A stretch of 45,296 bases of DNA from a virus (lineage: Duplodnaviria > Heunggongvirae > Uroviricota > Caudoviricetes). Positions 3,540-45,296 of the stretch are shown here, in pieces (within the stretch, counting starts at the first letter, position 1; each line of letters starts with the position of its first letter). The notes below the pieces were generated by a model that saw only the letters and a program-made list of their open reading frames with translations, made no database searches and had not been told where the DNA came from. Location: IMG/VR virus record IMGVR_UViG_2541047948_000009, one strand, 5' to 3'. Made by a program: the position numbers and the translations under genes.

Positions 3540-4159
3540 TACTTCACCTCCTGCGGCGGTTCCGGTAGCGGCATCCAGTGGGTTACTTTCGATGCCGGTT
3601 CTTCCATATCGTCAGTAACTGCCCACCATTTGTTTCTCGACCAATCGTAATACCCTTCGAAGGTATCGCACTCAGTCCAGCCGTAAGACTTCCCCCAACA
3701 CCAAACATACTGTTTATCGTTCGGCATTCGCTCACTACAGCTTATCCAACCATCCGGAGTTACCGGAGAGTTGCCCGACAGCTCGTTCAACTTGTAAGTC
3801 TGGCTTACAGGTTCGGCACCATGAAGCATGGCGGTGCGGCAGGAGTTCCAGCCTTCATCAAAGCCGACTATGCCATTATTTAAAGACGGAAGACCATCCG
3901 GCACCACCGACACTGGCTGAGCCATATATAGCGGCTGAACATACCAGCCCTTTGATAACCAACTGTCAGCAATGTTTTTGCTCCTGGTTATTGCCGGAAT
4001 ACCTAAGCCATTGTCTGAATGCAGCCACGCCAACGGCTCTGCTTCCAGTGATGCCAGAGCAATTTCATAAGCACGGCGCTCAACATTGTCTCGCACGTGC
4101 AGGCTGCCGATTCGTTCTTTGATTTCTTTAATCAGTTCCTTATCGGTGAAAGTGGTCAT
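3539..4159 (-). CDS. Phage early protein with C-terminal DUF551-like domain
   Basis: 206 aa; C-terminal W/C-rich motif (WISCSERMP...THWMPLPEPP); start overlaps the xis stop. Confidence 0.55.
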   Translation of the reverse strand: MTTFTDKELIKEIKERIGSLHVRDNVERRAYEIALASLEAEPLAWLHSDNGLGIPAITRSKNIADSWLSKGWYVQPLYMAQPVSVVPDGLPSLNNGIVGFDEGWNSCRTAMLHGAEPVSQTYKLNELSGNSPVTPDGWISCSERMPNDKQYVWCWGKSYGWTECDTFEGYYDWSRNKWWAVTDDMEEPASKVTHWMPLPEPPQEVK

Positions 4160-17703: not shown

Positions 17704-18731
<1,028 letters not shown>

Positions 18732-39100: not shown

Positions 39101-39519
39101 TTGAAGGCGATCTCGTTAAAACAGTGGGCAAAGCTTTCCCCCGGGACTCCCGTGCACCGGAACGGTGGCCATCAGGGACCATTACCGTCAGGGTTTATGA
39201 CGATCAGCCGTTTGACCGGCAGATTGTTATTCCTGCGGTGGCATTCAGCGGCGCTAAACATGAGAGAGAGCATACTGATATTTACTCCTCATGCCGTCTG
39301 ATAGTGCGGAAAAACGGTGCTGAAATTTATAACCGTACCGCGCTGGATAATACGCTGATTTACAGTGGCGTTATTGATATGCCTGCCGGTCACGGTCACA
39401 TGACGCTGGAGTTTTCGGTGTCAGCATGGCTGGTAAATGACTGGTATCCCACAGCAAGTATCAGCGATTTGCTGGTTGTGGTGATGAAGAAAGCCACCGC
39501 AGGCATCAGTATCAGCTGA
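36124..39519 (+). CDS. J: Central tail fibre / host specificity protein J
   Basis: Start at ATG 36124; N-terminus [37 protein letters not shown] matches recalled lambda J; about 1131 aa. Confidence 0.9.
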
Positions 39520-39527
39520 ATTTTATA

Positions 39528-39553
39528 ACCCATATACGGGCGCCAGAAATGGC
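39528..39553 (+). terminator. Intrinsic terminator after J
   Basis: GGGCGCC-agaaat-GGCGCC followed by TTTTTT. Confidence 0.6.
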
Positions 39554-39586
39554 GCCTTTTTTATTGCAGAAAAGCGAGAGGTAATT

Positions 39587-40186
39587 ATGCGTAAAGTTTG
39601 TGCAGCCATTTTGTCCGCAGCCATTTGTCTGGCCGTATCCGGTGCGCCTGCATGGGCGTCTGAACATCAGTCCACGCTGAGCGCGGGGTATCTTCATGCC
39701 TCGACGAACGTCCCCGGCAGTGATGATCTGAACGGGATTAACGTGAAATACCGTTATGAGTTTACGGACACACTGGGGCTGGTGACGTCATTCAGCTATG
39801 CAGGAGACAAGAATCGCCAGCTGACCCGTTACAGCGATACCCGCTGGCATGAAGATTCCGTTCGTAACCGCTGGTTCAGCGTAATGGCGGGGCCGTCTGT
39901 GCGCGTGAATGAATGGTTCAGCGCGTATGCGATGGCGGGTGTAGCTTACAGCCGTGTGTCGACTTTCTCCGGGGATTATCTTCGCGTAACTGACAACAAG
40001 GGGAAAAAGCACGATGTGCTGACCGGAAGTGATGACGGTCGCCACAGCAACACGTCTCTGGCGTGGGGGGCTGGCGTTCAGTTTAACCCGACCGAATCCG
40101 TGGCCATTGATATTGCTTATGAAGGCTCCGGCAGTGGCGACTGGCGCACTGACGGTTTCATCGTGGGTGTCGGTTATAAGTTCTGA
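39587..40186 (+). CDS. lom: Lom outer-membrane beta-barrel protein (Ail/Lom/PagC family), lysogenic-conversion moron
   Basis: 199 aa; signal peptide; Ail/Lom-type beta-strand pattern ending GFIVGVGYKF; own GAGAGG RBS and flanking terminators; position right after J as in lambda. Confidence 0.9.
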   Translation: MRKVCAAILSAAICLAVSGAPAWASEHQSTLSAGYLHASTNVPGSDDLNGINVKYRYEFTDTLGLVTSFSYAGDKNRQLTRYSDTRWHEDSVRNRWFSVMAGPSVRVNEWFSAYAMAGVAYSRVSTFSGDYLRVTDNKGKKHDVLTGSDDGRHSNTSLAWGAGVQFNPTESVAIDIAYEGSGSGDWRTDGFIVGVGYKF

Positions 40187-40212
40187 TTAGCCAGGTAACA
40201 CAGTGTTATGAC

Positions 40213-40240
40213 AGCCCGCCGGTTCAGGCGGGCTTTTTTG
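40213..40240 (+). terminator. Intrinsic terminator after lom
   Basis: AGCCCGCC-ggttca-GGCGGGCT followed by TTTTTTG. Confidence 0.6.
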
Positions 40241-40250
40241 TGGAGTGGAT

Positions 40251-42629
40251 ATGGCAGCAGTAAAAATCTCAGGTGTGCTGAAAGATGGTGCGGGAAAACC
40301 AATACAGAACTGCACTATTCAACTGAAGGCAAAGCGTAACAGCACCACGGTACTGGTGAACACGGTGGCCTCTGAAAATCCGGATGAAGCCGGGCGTTAC
40401 AGCATGGATGTTGAGTATGGTCAGTACAGCGTCACCCTGCTGGTTGAAGGTTTTCCGCCTTCACATGCCGGGACCATTACCGTCTATGAAGGTTCCAGAC
40501 CAGGTACGCTGAATGATTTTCTCGGTGCCATGACGGAAGATGATGTCATGCCGGAGGCATTGCGTCGTTTTGAGGCAATGGTGGAAGAAGCGGCACGCAA
40601 CGCCGAAGCCGCCTCTCAGAGCGCAGCAGCGGCAAAGAAATCCGAAACTGCAGCGGCATCATCGAAGAACGCGGCGAAAACCTCAGAAACAAATGCAGCT
40701 AACAGCGCACAGGCGGCAGCGTCCTCGCAGACTGCATCGGCAAACTCCGCGACAGCAGCCAAAAAATCAGAAACCAACGCGAAAAATAGCGAGACAGCCG
40801 CAAAGACGAGCGAAACCAACGCAAAGTCCAGCCAGACGGCAGCGAAAACAAGCGAAACGAATGCCAAAGCCAGTGAAACTGCGGCAAAAAACAGCCAGGT
40901 TGCAGCAGCCCAAAGCGCGAGCGCGGCAGCCGGTTCTGCGACTTCAGCAGCTGGATCAGCAACTGCTGCGGCTAACAGCCAGAAAGCTGCGAAGACGAGT
41001 GAAACTAACGCAAAGTCCAGCCAGACGGCAGCGAAGACCAGCGAAACGAATGCCAAAGCCAGCGAAACTGCGGCGAAAAACAGTCAGGATGCAGCAGCCC
41101 AAAGCGAGAGTGCTGCAGCTGGTTCTGCAAGCGCGGCGGCTGCTTCTGCCACTGCATCAGCCAACAGTCAAAAAGCAGCAAAAACCAGTGAAACCAATGC
41201 AAAGACAAGCGAGACTGCAGCGGCGAACTCGGCGAAAGCATCCGCTGCAAGCCAGACCGCTGCAAAAGCAAGTGAAGACGCAGCCAGAGAGTATGCAAGC
41301 CAGGCAGCAGATCCGTATAAATATGTCTTACAGCCGCTGCCTGATGTGTGGATACCGTTTAACGATTCACTGGATATGATTACGGGCTTTTTGCCATCAT
41401 ATAAAAAGATTGTTATTGGTGACGACGAAATAACGATGCCTGGCGACAAGATTGTTAAGTTTAAACGTGCATCGAAAGCAACCTATATTAACAAATCTGG
41501 TGTGCTGACAGAGGCTGCCATTGATGAGCCACGATTTGAACGTGATGGCCTGCTTATTGAGGGGCAAAGAACTAATCTTCTGCTTAATTCAACAAATCCA
41601 TCTAAATGGAATAAGTCAGGCAATCTGGAACTCACAGAAATATCCACGGATTCTTTTAATTTTACTTATGGGAGATTTACTGTAAAAGATACTCTTATTG
41701 GTCAGACAAGTGCTATTAATATCGTAACGATTTCTGGCAGTAAAGGGTTTGATGTCACAGGTGATGAAAAATATGTGACCATTTCATGCCGTGTAAGAAG
41801 TGATGTTGAAAATATAAGGTGTCGTTTAAGATTTGAACACCATGATGGTTATACTTACACTTTTTTGGGAGATGCTTACCTCAATTTATCAACACTTGTA
41901 ATTGATAAAACTGGTACTGCTGCAGACCGTATTATTGCAAAGGCTGTAAAAGATGAGGTTACTGGTTGGATTTTCTATCAGGCTACAATTAATGCACTAG
42001 ATACAGAGAGCATGATTGGTGCGATGGTTCAATACGCTCCTGTAAAAGGTTCAGGTACAGCATCTGGAGACTATCTGGATATCGCAACTCCACAAGTGGA
42101 AGGTGGATCAAGTGCTTCGTCATTTATTGTAACTGATATAACTGCAAGCACTCGCGCAAGCGATATGGTGACAGTCCCAATCAAGAATAACCTTTATAAT
42201 CTTCCTTTTACGGTTCTTTGTGAGGTACATAAGAACTGGTATAAAACGCCAAATGCAGCACCGCGTGTTTTTGATACCGGCGGTCATCAAACCGGAGCGG
42301 CTATTATTCTTGGCTTCGGTCGTTCAACAGATTACGACGGATTTCCTTATTGTGATATAGGTTTGGCTAACAGACGGGTAAACGAAAACGCATCGCTTGA
42401 AAAAATGGTTATGGGGATGCGTGTAAAGTCAGATCAGTCTACGTGCTCAGTAAGTAACGGGCGTATATCCAGCGAAAAGAAAGCCACATGGTCCTATATT
42501 CAGAACTCCGCAATTATCCGTATTGGAGGCCAGACTACAGCCGGGTTGCGTCATTTATTTGGTCATGTCAGGAATTTCAGAATATGGCACAAGGCATTGA
42601 CTGATGCTCAGATGGGGGAGTCAATCTAA
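40251..42629 (+). CDS. stf: Side tail fibre protein (lambda Stf-like N-terminus, repetitive Ala/Ser/Thr shaft, divergent AT-rich C-terminal receptor-binding domain)
   Basis: N-terminus MAAVKISGVLKDGAGKPIQNCTIQLKAKRNSTT matches recalled lambda Stf; AAKTSETNAK-type repeats; C-terminal about 430 aa are AT-rich and end with a LamG/ConA-like motif (GHVRNFRIWHKALTDAQMGE). Confidence 0.85.
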   Translation: MAAVKISGVLKDGAGKPIQNCTIQLKAKRNSTTVLVNTVASENPDEAGRYSMDVEYGQYSVTLLVEGFPPSHAGTITVYEGSRPGTLNDFLGAMTEDDVMPEALRRFEAMVEEAARNAEAASQSAAAAKKSETAAASSKNAAKTSETNAANSAQAAASSQTASANSATAAKKSETNAKNSETAAKTSETNAKSSQTAAKTSETNAKASETAAKNSQVAAAQSASAAAGSATSAAGSATAAANSQKAAKTSETNAKSSQTAAKTSETNAKASETAAKNSQDAAAQSESAAAGSASAAAASATASANSQKAAKTSETNAKTSETAAANSAKASAASQTAAKASEDAAREYASQAADPYKYVLQPLPDVWIPFNDSLDMITGFLPSYKKIVIGDDEITMPGDKIVKFKRASKATYINKSGVLTEAAIDEPRFERDGLLIEGQRTNLLLNSTNPSKWNKSGNLELTEISTDSFNFTYGRFTVKDTLIGQTSAINIVTISGSKGFDVTGDEKYVTISCRVRSDVENIRCRLRFEHHDGYTYTFLGDAYLNLSTLVIDKTGTAADRIIAKAVKDEVTGWIFYQATINALDTESMIGAMVQYAPVKGSGTASGDYLDIATPQVEGGSSASSFIVTDITASTRASDMVTVPIKNNLYNLPFTVLCEVHKNWYKTPNAAPRVFDTGGHQTGAAIILGFGRSTDYDGFPYCDIGLANRRVNENASLEKMVMGMRVKSDQSTCSVSNGRISSEKKATWSYIQNSAIIRIGGQTTAGLRHLFGHVRNFRIWHKALTDAQMGESI
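40801..41178. repeat. Two near-identical tandem copies of an about 189-bp unit inside the stf shaft-coding region
   Basis: Units starting near 40801 and 40990 are about 90% identical at nucleotide level; encoded AAKTSETNAKSSQTAAKTSETNAKASETAAKNSQ repeated. Confidence 0.6.
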
Positions 42630-42910
42630 TGAAAGATTTAACACTCAAATTTGCAGACAGGGCCGACTTTTCGGCCTTTATGGATAGCATTGGCTATTAT
42701 GATGACGAGTCGATGCAGGATGATATTCTTATTGACGTGATAGGTAACGTGTACAAAGAAACCGGAGAACTGACTGAAGATGGCGAACCGGTATGTGTTA
42801 AGGAAGATGGATATTTTGTAAACGTGCGCATCATTAATGATGCAAAAAAATCGTTAATATTCGATGAATACGCGGTTGTAGTTGAACATCAACTTCGTGG
42901 CTGGATGTGA
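42629..42910 (+). CDS. Hypothetical acidic protein translationally coupled to stf (possible fibre chaperone or accessory)
   Basis: 93 aa; TAATG overlap with the stf stop; AT-rich like the stf C-terminal domain. Confidence 0.45.
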   Translation: MKDLTLKFADRADFSAFMDSIGYYDDESMQDDILIDVIGNVYKETGELTEDGEPVCVKEDGYFVNVRIINDAKKSLIFDEYAVVVEHQLRGWM

Positions 42911-42919
42911 GGGAGACAA

Positions 42920-43624
42920 ATGGCTACATCGACAGTAATTCCAGGAGACATCACCACGTTAAAGGGAGATGTCAGTAAAGCCAAGGAAGATATTTCCTCA
43001 ATTAACGGAAAAGTATCAACGCTTCAGGCTGATATGACCAGTGCAAAGCAGGATATCAGCACCAGATACACAAAAACTGAAGTTGATAATAAGCTGAAAA
43101 ACAAACTGGAAGTGAACGCTCTGGAAAGCGGTCGTTATGGTGGAGATTTTTACCCGTTGACTGGCCGTGAAGCGTTTTATTTGTGGGGATTGGGCACGAC
43201 TACAGCGGCGGCAAACCTTTATCTTAATCCTGACCCCGCAATTTCGTCTGTGCTGCGGTCAACATCGTCTATCCGCTATAAACATTCAGTAGAGACAATA
43301 GATTCAGAGCACGCCGATCTCATTTTCAGGATGCGCCCTGTGTGGTACAGGTCACAATGCGAAAATGACAGGCGTGACTGGGGATTCTACGGATTGATTG
43401 CCGAGGAAGTAGGAGAAATTGCCCCTCAGTTTGTACACTGGCGACCAGCTAACGAAGATGATGCACCGGAAGCTATTTCCAGCAATGGCCTTGTTGCCGA
43501 AGGTGTAATGTACGAACGTCTGGTTGTTCCACTGATTCACCATATCCAGAAGCTGACTGAAAGAGTTGATGAACTTGAGTCAGAATTAAAGTTGTTATCC
43601 GTTTCCCGAAGCGATATCGGATAA
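42920..43624 (+). CDS. Short fibre-like protein with C-terminal intramolecular chaperone (peptidase S74-like) domain
   Basis: 234 aa; N-terminal heptad-like repeats; C-terminal DRRDWGFYGLIAEEVGEIAPQFV...GLVAEGVMYERLVVPLIHHIQKL...DELE resembles the autoproteolytic chaperone domain of phage fibres and spikes (memory-based). Confidence 0.45.
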   Translation: MATSTVIPGDITTLKGDVSKAKEDISSINGKVSTLQADMTSAKQDISTRYTKTEVDNKLKNKLEVNALESGRYGGDFYPLTGREAFYLWGLGTTTAAANLYLNPDPAISSVLRSTSSIRYKHSVETIDSEHADLIFRMRPVWYRSQCENDRRDWGFYGLIAEEVGEIAPQFVHWRPANEDDAPEAISSNGLVAEGVMYERLVVPLIHHIQKLTERVDELESELKLLSVSRSDIG

Positions 43625-43634
43625 AGGAGGAGTA

Positions 43635-43928
43635 ATGGATATAACACCTTTCCTTCATGCGCTTTGTGCTGTGGCTGCGCAGCTACTGATTGGTCTTTTT
43701 ACCGGGAACTGGGCTTACGGGGCGATAGCTGGTTGTACGTTCTTCATTGCGCGTGAACACACCCAGGCAGAATATCGCTGGATTGAAATGTTCGGGCATG
43801 GCAAGCGAATGAATATGCCGTGGTGGGGCGGTTTTGATCCGCGCGCGTGGGATGTGGCAAGCCTGATGGATTTTGCTGTGCCGGTGGTGGCGTGTCTGCT
43901 GGTCTGGCTGTTGGTTAATCGTGGGTGA
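43635..43928 (+). CDS. Small integral membrane protein (2-3 predicted TM helices), candidate receptor-masking or superinfection-exclusion factor
   Basis: 97 aa; hydrophobic segments FLHALCAVAAQLLIGLF and VASLMDFAVPVVACLLVWLLV; AGGAGG RBS. Confidence 0.45.
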   Translation: MDITPFLHALCAVAAQLLIGLFTGNWAYGAIAGCTFFIAREHTQAEYRWIEMFGHGKRMNMPWWGGFDPRAWDVASLMDFAVPVVACLLVWLLVNRG

Positions 43929-43938
43929 AAAAAGGTGA

Positions 43939-44058
43939 GCTGTATATGCAACGGAGGAAGAAACCTCGTTGCTGGAAGCCTGGAAGAAGTATCGGGTGTT
44001 GCTGAACCGTGTTGATACGTCAACTGCACAGGATATTGAATGGCCAGCACTGCCGTAG
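43939..44058 (+). pseudogene. 3' remnant of a tail-fibre assembly gene (tfa)
   Basis: Frame encodes ...[36 protein letters not shown], matching the recalled lambda Tfa C-terminus; no start codon or upstream tfa body; the frame opens just after a stop at 43936-43938. Confidence 0.6.
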
Positions 44059-44155
44059 GGTAAAACATATAAATTCTATAATTAGATGTATCTTTCCATT
44101 TACGGCAAGGAAGGGGGCTTGGAAGACGTAAAGCATCTCACACCGAGATTATTTT

Positions 44156-44746
44156 TTATATGTCAGGTGTCTGAAGTTTTGCTTTGGCTCTTAAAATGGT
44201 TTGCCGCGAGGTTTTGAATTCCCGGGCAATGGCACTTATACTTACACCTGACTTAATTCGTTCGAATACCACCTGTTTCTGTTCTTCATTTAACACAGGT
44301 GGTCGACCAAAACGTTTCCCTGCGCCGCGGGCTCTTACTATCCCGGAATGAGTGCGTTCAAGTAAAAGGTCTCGTTCAAATTCAGCGACTGCTGAAATTA
44401 CGTGCATCATCATTTTTCCTGTTGGACTGGTCAGGTCAATGCCCCCCAATGCTAAGCAATGCACTCTGATACCTGTTTCGGTCAGTTGTTCCACTGTTTT
44501 CCTGATATCCATTGCATTACAACCAAGGCGATCCAGTTTTGTCACAATCAATTGATCACCACATTTCAGGCGAGCAAGCAACCGGTTAAAACCAGGACGC
44601 TCACTGGTTGCTGCTGAGCCGCTAATGTGTTCTTCGATTATTTGCTGAGGTTTGATTTTAAAACCTGCACTTTCGATTTCCCGGCGTTGATTTTCGGTGG
44701 TCTGATCCAGCGTTGATATCCGACAGTAAGCAAAAATTCGAGACAT
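44156..44746 (-). CDS. Serine recombinase, DNA invertase (Pin/Gin/Hin family)
   Basis: 196 aa; N-terminal catalytic motif YCRISTLDQ (active-site Ser), resolvase core, C-terminal HTH; adjacent to tail-fibre genes. Confidence 0.9.
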
Positions 44747-45062
44747 AGTGAGACTCTATACGAAATTGGTGTTCATATCATAATGCATCTCAGAAAATAA
44801 TTTTGATTATTTTTGTGCATATTTGTATGTACACGTTCGAAAATAAACGAATGCGTATGCAACCCCGTAACTTTGGTGAGACCCAAAATCGATTTTGTGA
44901 AAAATGGCTTTAACTCGGTTTGTTTTTCGAGTTCCGGGCGGACTCAAGGAAGAAGAATAGTGTTGCGTGTTATTTTAACCAGATTTCAAGTTGTTTGGTC
45001 GTGGAAAAGTGGAGCAAAATGTTGTTAAAGTGGAAAAATGATAAAAAAGTAAGTTTATTATA

Positions 45063-45296
45063 TTACATTTTACCATTTAAATTTTGGTTGTCTTTAAGAA
45101 CTGATATCGCTGTTTGTAATAATTCTTTGTTATCCAGCCATGACTTTTTCTTTATGTTTCCTTCAATGTAATCAAGCAATGTTCTGGTATTGATAGGTCT
45201 TCCCTGTTTTGCTACTTCCACGACAGCATCTCCCAGGATAATTCTGACTTCAGGAAGCTGCGCAGGGAACCACTTTAGGGTGTCTTTTGATTTCAT
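45063..45296 (-). CDS. ydfK: YdfK/YnaE-like small prophage protein
   Basis: 77 aa beginning at the window edge; MKSKDTLKWFPAQLPEVRIILGDAVVEVAKQGRPINTRTLLDYIEGNIKK... matches recalled YdfK/YnaE. Confidence 0.65.
   Translation of the reverse strand: MKSKDTLKWFPAQLPEVRIILGDAVVEVAKQGRPINTRTLLDYIEGNIKKKSWLDNKELLQTAISVLKDNQNLNGKM

Follow-up and report, generated by a model that had tools for sequence, protein, structure and literature searches.

The tail-fibre region of a lambdoid prophage was analysed within a stretch of 45,296 nucleotides (nt) of Caudoviricetes DNA (IMG/VR record IMGVR_UViG_2541047948_000009; hereafter the window, whose numbering is used for all positions). In this region the long side-fibre gene stf is followed by three small genes, orf93, orf234 and orf97, called here after the lengths of their products in amino acids (aa), and by the 3' end of a tfa gene that lacks its body. 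Together with the protein functions that we infer for it, the locus is probably best explained by three units that were exchanged independently of one another and now form a mosaic within a lambdoid backbone. The first would be a low-GC lateral-tail-fibre cassette consisting of the distal half of stf (from about 41331 on), orf93 and the first 15 or so codons of orf234; the second would be orf234 itself, as a short trimeric fibre with a swappable body; and the third would be orf97, which encodes a small membrane protein standing outside the fibre set. The locus is a case of ordinary and widespread phage mosaicism, and is neither a defect nor a receptor blocker of the Cor/Llp type.

The order J-lom-stf in the window is that of lambda, with lom upstream and pin downstream of the fibre genes. 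On the plus strand follow one another stf (40245-42629, 794 aa), orf93 (42629-42910), orf234 (42920-43624), orf97 (43635-43928) and the tfa remnant (43939-44058). All four open reading frames (ORFs) are intact and are separated by -1, 9 and 10 nt, a strong Shine-Dalgarno sequence stands ahead of every gene, and no terminator-like site was detected between stf and the tfa remnant. Homologues of each gene number in the hundreds, and a lambdoid prophage beside prfC in E. coli S88, APEC O1 and many other strains matches the 3.5-kb stretch 41300-44800 with 100% identity, indicating that these are real genes and not chance ORFs. As many as 68 complete E. coli genomes hold at least 80% of this 3.5-kb stretch, and most of those listed are 99.9-100% identical to it. 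The arrangement was also found in isolated and deposited phages, namely HannyBb, Tritos, PhiR63_1, IdasGreatGrand, 2G7b and phage 21. An earlier note on this DNA, made from the letters alone, had described an acidic protein gene coupled to stf, a gene for an S74-domain protein, a membrane-protein gene and a truncated tfa, and all of these features were found in their places.

The breakpoints of the mosaic were mapped by blastn alignment of the window to fetched phage loci, including lambda stf-tfa and those of related phages. Homology to lambda and to Turner, a phage of the stf-tfa-pin type, takes in lom and some 130 codons at the start of stf and breaks off at 40603-40642; it is found again from 43947/8 on, within tfa at Tfa codon 156. 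As judged from these alignments, the block 40642-43948 stands where ordinary stf-tfa-pin phages have the distal part of stf and codons 1-155 of tfa, which bears out the recombinational removal of the tfa body that the earlier note had proposed. Lambda Stf-Tfa, which forms the side tail fibres of Ur-lambda, and the stf-tfa-pin loci of Turner, mEp460, Rac and Qin share with the window the same Stf N-terminus, the flanks and the last 36 Tfa codons; what the window lacks is their distal two-thirds of Stf together with Tfa codons 1-155, for which other sequence has been substituted, and it holds no functional tfa gene.

The left end of the exchanged block lies inside stf. The 5' part of the gene (40245-40642, GC 0.53) belongs to the backbone and codes for the lambdoid N-terminal tail-attachment domain, as recognised by the Pfam family phage_tail_N (PF08400; aa 5-134, E-value 1e-66); this domain and the position of the gene after J and lom identify the product as Stf. 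Nucleotide identity of the 5' part to lambda, Turner and phage 21 is 82-92%, and the matches end between 40603 and 40780. It is followed by a shaft of Ala/Ser/Thr-rich tandem repeats (40643-41330), which matches many PHROGs annotated as 'tail fiber'. Within the shaft, positions 40746-41123 form two tandem copies of 189 nt, 82% identical to each other, with a 63-nt sub-period and repeats of the type AAKTSETNAK. Since the imported distal domain starts right after them, at about 41331, these repeats may serve as the left recombination joint. From exactly 41331, the sequence is 71-81% identical at the nucleotide level to the virulent phages ESCO3 (Nonagvirus; match 41331-42979) and VSe12 (T5-like; match 41331-42657).

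Further joints were located within and after orf234. The match to HannyBb extends over 40234-42963, and thus over stf, orf93 and 15 codons at the start of orf234; HannyBb then carries an unrelated and longer S74 fibre body, and its match resumes with 99% identity at 43634, the base before the orf97 ATG. Phage 21 matches the window over 43623-44004, which is orf97 plus the first 20 codons of the tfa remnant. IdasGreatGrand has orf93-orf234-orf97 in common with the window and differs in the region downstream. GC content by segment is 0.57 in J, 0.56 in lom (0.55-0.57 for the two) and a backbone-like 0.54 in orf97, against 0.41 in the distal part of stf, 0.40 in orf93 and 0.46 in orf234, in agreement with the mosaic picture given by the breakpoints.

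The tfa remnant at 43939-44058 is a scar of 39 open codons with a stop codon directly before it and no ATG, and is thus far from a full-length Tfa of ~190 aa. It corresponds to positions 95-130 of the 131 of Pfam Caudo_TAP (E-value 1e-16) and to aa 156-191 of the Tfa of lambda and Turner, and in E. coli S88 it is labelled a partial pseudogene by the annotation pipeline PGAP. No other Tfa-like sequence was found when the whole window was searched, so that the absence of an intact tfa, as read in the earlier note, holds. The joint between orf97 and tfa falls at the same Tfa codon in the window, in HannyBb and in phage 21; because viable phages share it, the replacement is regarded as one old event and not as prophage decay. 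In the favoured explanation, tfa would have been lost when the cassette recombined in, since neither fibre is expected to need Tfa, and its 3' ~36 codons would have been left as the right-hand joint. In phage 21 (locus L010, 5295-8835) the scar is cut after 20 codons by a moron carrying the sitABCD iron/manganese transporter genes, indicating that this joint was reused as an insertion point. A second copy of a tfa 3' fragment, 85% identical, lies downstream of pin in Turner (locus L004, 7772-7846), which suggests that recombination has repeatedly used the conserved 3' end of tfa as a linker.

The imported part of stf (41331-42629) is predicted to code for the distal receptor-binding domain. 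Over aa 437-638 it matches the NCBIfam family GTA_spike_fiber (58.6 bits against a cut-off of 36; GTA, gene transfer agent), and the domain resembles the head spike fibre Rcc01080 of RcGTA (PDB 6tb9, E-value 2.5e-4). At the end of phage 21 Stf, a sub-threshold match to the concanavalin A (ConA)-like lectin family Laminin_G_3 was observed (23.9 bits against a cut-off of 27.6, E-value 5e-5). Stf itself gave no match to PF13884, the Peptidase_S74 family, and would be a long proximal fibre ending in this GTA-head-spike-fibre- and lectin-like domain. Among the cassette-bearing phages compared, the distal domain is 46-76% identical at the amino acid level.

The cassette is present in virulent phages of the T1-like, T5-like, Nonagvirus and rV5-like groups as well. 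The order of a long fibre gene, a gene of ~93 codons and a short fibre gene was observed in KarlJaspers, VSe12, EmilHeitz and ESCO3, and the distal domain of VSe12 Stf, 73% identical at the amino acid level to that of the window, is followed by an orf93 homologue as here. The earlier note had treated the three genes after stf as one module. This stood for orf93 and the short fibre gene, which together with the distal part of stf form a conserved set in virulent phages, and failed for orf97, which moves independently. A conserved fibre-assembly set, the outcome named in that note as speaking against its own proposal, was thus what the T1-like and Nonagvirus phages revealed for stf distal part, orf93 and short fibre.

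Translation of orf93 is coupled to that of stf, its start codon overlapping the stf stop codon in the sequence TAATG. The product is small and acidic (isoelectric point 4.17; 21 Asp and Glu against 9 Lys and Arg) and belongs to phrog_1361 (E-value 4e-46). Homologues were found in 181 phage records; in nearly all of the rows listed, the matched region is annotated as fibre or tail. In all nine of the loci inspected, among them KarlJaspers (T1-like), VSe12 (T5-like), EmilHeitz (rV5-like), ESCO3 (Nonagvirus), phage 21 and a phage-plasmid, the gene stands directly after the long fibre gene, usually overlapping its stop codon. Phage 21 and the phage-plasmid PhiR41_1 have the order stf-orf93-orf97 and lack the S74 gene, and in ~20 wild lambda-like phages orf93 lies 19 nt before orf97, as given by the match coordinates, with no short fibre gene. 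These phages indicate that orf93 belongs with the distal domain of Stf and that the short fibre is optional. We infer that orf93 is an obligatory and dedicated partner of this type of Stf distal domain, which as a folding or assembly factor, or as an adaptor, would take over the job that Tfa performs for Stf of the lambda type. A sequence search of the PDB and an hhalign comparison with lambda Tfa were both negative.

The domain order of orf234 is that expected of a short fibre. Its C-terminal part (43265-43624) carries the Peptidase_S74 intramolecular chaperone domain (PF13884), detected at aa 116-172 of 234 with 27.3 bits against a gathering cut-off of 22; in longer variants of the protein the same domain scores 52-53 bits. 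The S-x4-K motif, S116-S-I-R-Y-K121, aligns with T-S-G-I-E-Y-K of 8hqz_d, a chain of a solved L-shaped tail fibre. In front of it, the segment 43004-43264 would form a coiled-coil stalk and a small tip: heptad-like repeats in this protein align weakly to the coiled coil of the P22 gp26 needle (E-value 0.015) and to the repeats of 8hqz_d. The full length of orf234 corresponds to positions 1147-1384 of phrog_3299, a profile of 1385 aa.

The body of orf234 is variable and its beginning is constant. Over its first 27-32 aa the protein is 66-74% identical to the 343-351-aa variants of HannyBb, Tritos, 2G7b and ESCO3; the bodies of these variants are unrelated to its own, and no match was obtained to the rest of the HannyBb and ESCO3 variants. 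Members of the family range from 234 to 351 aa, and in the variants of 343-351 aa the anchor at the N-terminus is separated from the S74 domain by ~110 additional residues. A short fibre with S74 is carried by KarlJaspers (225 aa), HannyBb (343 aa) and ESCO3 (351 aa); in VSe12 and EmilHeitz, the third gene encodes a different 'tail fiber protein' without S74. The orf234 body of the window is present in 14% of complete E. coli genomes. With a constant N-terminus of ~28 aa, a variable body and a C-terminal S74 domain, orf234 looks like the short second fibre that had been suggested for it. By analogy with known branched fibres, the conserved N-terminal ~28 aa (42920-43003) would dock on Stf as an anchor, and the distal part would be a swappable module. 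The protein would fold by means of its own cis-acting and self-cleaving S74 chaperone, and cleavage, if it occurs at the predicted site, would leave a mature part of ~115 aa.

Fibres of this general design have been described. LtfA/LtfB of DT57C and gp14/gp15 of phiEco32 make up two-protein or branched lateral fibres, in which the second fibre has at its N-terminus a short and conserved segment for docking (PMC4728585, PMC10713586). As in these systems, a second and shorter fibre gene comes after the long proximal one in the window, and its product has a variable distal part and a C-terminal S74 domain that is predicted to be autoproteolytic. The window differs from DT57C in that a gene of ~93 codons lies between the two fibre genes, of which the searched parts of the text of these two papers make no mention, and in that the second fibre is far shorter. 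In the BASEL study, the lateral fibres of small siphoviruses and T5-like phages were noted to consist of one, two or more proteins (PMC8594841), and the 1385-aa profile of phrog_3299, with orf234 as its end, fits this remark. In the BASEL collection (PMC8594841), Drexlerviridae, Dhillonvirus and Queuovirinae have a lateral tail fibre locus with these three genes, whose order and overlaps, for example in KarlJaspers (bas06_0037-0035), are those of the window: the fibre distal part is 46% identical at the amino acid level, the 92-aa protein 53% and the 225-aa S74 protein 60%. The BASEL phages differ from the window in being virulent, in having no orf97, and in using another N-terminal attachment domain, and the role of the S74 protein is given there only as 'putative chaperone'. 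The fibre cassette of the window is thus an instance of the known two-protein lateral fibres with an intramolecular chaperone, and would not surprise a phage specialist.

Several points weigh against this account of the fibre genes. The AlphaFold2 model of orf93 reached a predicted local distance difference test (pLDDT) score of only 46.8, with an alignment made of homologues of >82% identity. Stf has no S74 domain while both fibres of DT57C do, so that the analogy to LtfA/LtfB does not hold in full; after cleavage only ~115 aa of orf234 would be left; and its T1-like orthologue was labelled 'putative lateral tail fiber chaperone' by the BASEL authors. The last three points lead to another interpretation, in which orf234 acts in trans as a chaperone of Stf and is absent from the virion as a fibre, and in which stf-orf93-orf234 makes one fibre and two chaperones. 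It draws on the small post-cleavage part, on the chaperone annotation of the orthologue in KarlJaspers and also PeterMerian, and on an Stf that has neither an S74 domain of its own nor a Tfa. We regard this as unlikely. Phage 21 and the ~20 lambda-like phages have this type of Stf together with orf93 and no orf234, and hence Stf does not need orf234; the ~110-aa insert of the longer variants follows the pattern of a swappable receptor-binding module and not that of a chaperone; and the short 'tail fiber protein' encoded by the third gene of T5-like and rV5-like phages is a different one, without S74. As far as is known, S74 domains serve solely in cis, as intramolecular chaperones (PMC4728585). 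Decay of the locus, by which the loss of tfa would have inactivated the side fibres of a defective prophage, is hardly credible. It would account for tfa being a pseudogene fragment and for the adjacent invertase being apparently an orphan; but the isolated phages HannyBb, Tritos and PhiR63_1 have the identical architecture together with the scar, phage 21 has the same joint, the four ORFs are intact and preceded by strong ribosome-binding sites, and the stretch is carried by the 68 complete genomes mentioned above. The preferred explanation of orf234 stays that of a short fibre that folds by its own S74 domain.

The third unit, orf97, is highly conserved and separately mobile; in many phage types it lies at the 3' end of receptor-binding loci, and in places beside lysis genes. 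The product is a member of phrog_1443 (E-value 6e-59) with a grand average of hydropathy of +0.52 and hydrophobic segments at about aa 3-28 and 71-97. AlphaFold2 predicted three helices, at aa 4-23, 26-53 and 74-96, with a mean pLDDT of 93.6. The segment between helices 2 and 3 is almost invariant within the family, with the pattern AREHTQAEYRWI..FG.GKR.NMPWWGGFD.R.W (also given as REHTQAEYRWI...NMPWWGGFD), and this invariant loop comprises 34 residues. The N-terminus, MDITPFLHALCAV, has an acidic n-region, a Leu before the Cys, and a Cys11 that is not conserved, and is not that of a lipobox protein. The C-terminal tail is just 'NRG', without the charged tail of holins. The family comprises 575 clusters when grouped at 90% identity, and an exhaustive hidden Markov model search gave 434 clusters at the 50% level; the best 150 of these 434 clusters are all of 58-146 aa, and among these listed members orf97 is thus fused to no other domain. 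The family has no Pfam model, and no match to an exclusion family was obtained in Pfam, NCBIfam or PADLOC; ten distant members compared with Pfam gave nothing above cut-off, and the PADLOC defence libraries gave no match for orf93, orf234 or orf97. In the library of papers searched, none names HannyBb or IdasGreatGrand, and no description of the small genes after stf was found.

The gene is widespread and follows no single fibre type. It was detected in 1906 of 5426 complete E. coli genomes (35%), with a median of 2 copies. In phage 21, whose Stf distal domain and orf93 are only 52-53% identical to those of the window, orf97 is 96% identical, and across phages with Stf distal domains 53-76% identical to that of the window its identity is 96-100%. 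Co-variation with one receptor-binding protein was looked for and not found. Among the matches listed, none was in the T1-like, T5-like or Nonagvirus phages that bear the fibre cassette; since these virulent phages assemble the same cassette without orf97, a role in fibre assembly is unlikely. The family occurs in sipho-, myo- and podoviruses of gamma- and betaproteobacteria and also in probably virulent large phages. The gene stands beside Stf and orf93 in lambdoids and a phage-plasmid, beside a P22-type tailspike in Gally, beside a P2-type S74 fibre in a Leclercia prophage, beside S74 tailspikes in a metagenomic phage (L020/L021) and in Cobetia phage Carin-5, and near gpJ, with a 72-aa gene between, in a Comamonas prophage. 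In phiHAP-1 it lies between a Tfa-like gene and the sheath gene FI, which we take to be the Z/fun moron site of P2. A specific link between S74 and orf97, for which the window, Leclercia, L020/L021 and Carin-5 were considered, was dropped because the homology to HannyBb resumes exactly at the start of orf97 and not within the S74 domain; orf97 also follows genes without S74.

On the chromosome of Aeromonas rivipollensis (L006, 6001-6309) a homologue of orf97, 58% identical, lies outside any recognisable prophage, where its neighbours code for pirin, a RIO1 kinase and two lipid A acyltransferases. In the Comamonas prophage (L007, 6001-7521) and a metagenomic contig (L030, 1005-3788), orf97 heads a syntenic trio with genes for a protein with three and a protein with two transmembrane domains (TMDs); the trio is followed by an endolysin gene of two different types (transglycosylase-like versus Peptidase_M15), and in L030 also by a gene for an Rz-like DUF2514 protein. 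This trio may represent an undescribed architecture of lysis cassette. In Gally, a strong terminator (3789-3809), a 190-nt AT-rich spacer and a promoter-like site, all recognised by pattern matches only, precede orf97.

Our tentative preference, which falls short of even odds, is that orf97 is a moron-type inner-membrane exclusion or conversion protein that guards the lysogen or the infected cell by a means other than receptor masking. The layout in Gally, the position in phiHAP-1, the chromosomal copy and the multiple copies in E. coli genomes favour this reading. Somewhat more speculatively, the family may form a new class, either a broad block of DNA entry at the inner membrane or a regulator that ties the release of virions to envelope state, whose target would be a conserved envelope component. 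HK97 gp15, T4 Imm and P22 SieA are, like orf97, small membrane proteins encoded among or after tail genes (PMC3594210, PMC10883804); orf97 differs from them in showing no similarity of sequence or fold, in having no promoter of its own in the window, and in having some relatives within lysis cassettes. Other results speak against a moron function. Lys plus Arg residues average 5.4 in the conserved loop, 0.2 at the N-terminus and 0.8 at the C-terminus, from which no clear topology emerges, and fold searches gave no informative match. Ahead of orf97 in the window there is a gap of 10 nt, in which neither a promoter-like site nor a terminator was found when both were looked for. Having no promoter of its own, the gene is probably expressed late only and fits poorly to a classical lysogenic-conversion gene. 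In four relatives, moreover, orf97 lies among holin-like and endolysin genes, pointing to lysis.

According to this last view, orf97 is a lysis-associated membrane protein (a holin, an antiholin or a timing modulator) placed as the last late gene, and its adjacency to fibre genes is incidental. The orf97-headed trios of L007 and L030 agree with it, as do locus L024, in which Phage_lysozyme is followed by a 90-aa protein with two TMDs and then by the orf97-like gene, and Aeromonas phage 62AhydR11PP, in which orf97 comes after a transglycosylase-like protein and a 2-TMD protein. A length of ~100 aa and three helices resemble class I holins, and in the window orf97 is probably co-transcribed with the late genes, as judged from the gaps. 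The window has, however, its own lysis genes of the phage 21 type (SAR endolysin, Rz/Rz1; SAR, signal-anchor-release) 25 kb away at 17.7-18.7 kb, and to our knowledge lysis by phage 21 is explained by pinholin, SAR endolysin and spanins alone, yet that phage carries orf97. The missing charged C-terminal tail and the 34-residue invariant loop would be unusual for a holin, the Aeromonas chromosomal copy and the multiple E. coli copies fit a gene of benefit to the host better than a lysis gene, and the layout behind a terminator in Gally is that of a moron; a function in lysis stays the main rival reading, ranked not far below that of an exclusion or conversion moron. Far less probable is the proposal of the earlier note that orf97 masks the outer-membrane receptor of the adjacent fibre, as Cor (T1, phi80, N15) and Llp (T5) do, which are outer-membrane receptor-blocking lipoproteins specific for FhuA (PMC9586334). 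The adjacency of orf97 to receptor-binding genes in many temperate phages and the moron-like layout in Gally would suit such a function, and the position beside a receptor-binding gene is all that orf97 shares with these proteins. Without a lipobox or a basic n-region and with a non-conserved Cys11, it is predicted to be a polytopic helical protein, for which a receptor in the outer membrane would be out of reach. Its sequence hardly varies, being >95% identical next to diverged Stf, while the neighbouring receptor-binding proteins are unrelated or ~50% identical and Cor and Llp are receptor-specific. Members are also found in probably virulent large phages and beside lysis genes, and no exclusion family was matched; the proposal is accordingly not supported, and what is left is an accessory protein acting on the envelope.

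In annotation, loci of this common type call for the reading of a Tfa-independent two-fibre cassette followed by a tfa scar; calling them broken stf-tfa loci would be mistaken. The locus also shows that virulent T1-like, T5-like and Nonagvirus phages exchange one lateral-fibre cassette with temperate lambdoids, with joints in the Stf shaft and at the conserved 3' end of tfa. Both orf93 and orf97 are very widespread genes without prior characterisation, and of the two orf97, a strongly conserved membrane protein, has the most potential for discovery.

Downstream of the cassette, a backbone gene on the minus strand (44156-44746) codes for a serine invertase of the Pin/Hin type, identified by Pfam Resolvase and HTH_7 and by phrog_125 (DNA invertase). 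An invertible segment operated by this Pin-like invertase, as in the G segment of Mu, the C segment of P1 or the P-type segment of e14, was considered and rejected, as the locus has no fibre genes on the opposite strand and no crossover sites: neither a gix/hix-like crossover core nor a long inverted repeat was found in a search of 39500-45296. The invertase gene, convergent with the fibre operon, appears from its sequence context to be an orphan like pinR and pinQ. Two antisense ORFs on the minus strand, 43715-44068 (117 aa) and 44020-44136 (38 aa), overlap orf97 and the tfa scar; the shorter one bears the label 'hypothetical protein' in HannyBb and Turner and is probably spurious. Far upstream, the lysis genes of the window (17704-18731) are of the phage 21 type by their sequence features, with a 177-aa lysozyme that has a hydrophobic SAR-like N-terminus, followed by Rz, in which an Rz1-like ORF with a lipobox-like LTSC is embedded at 18385-18681.

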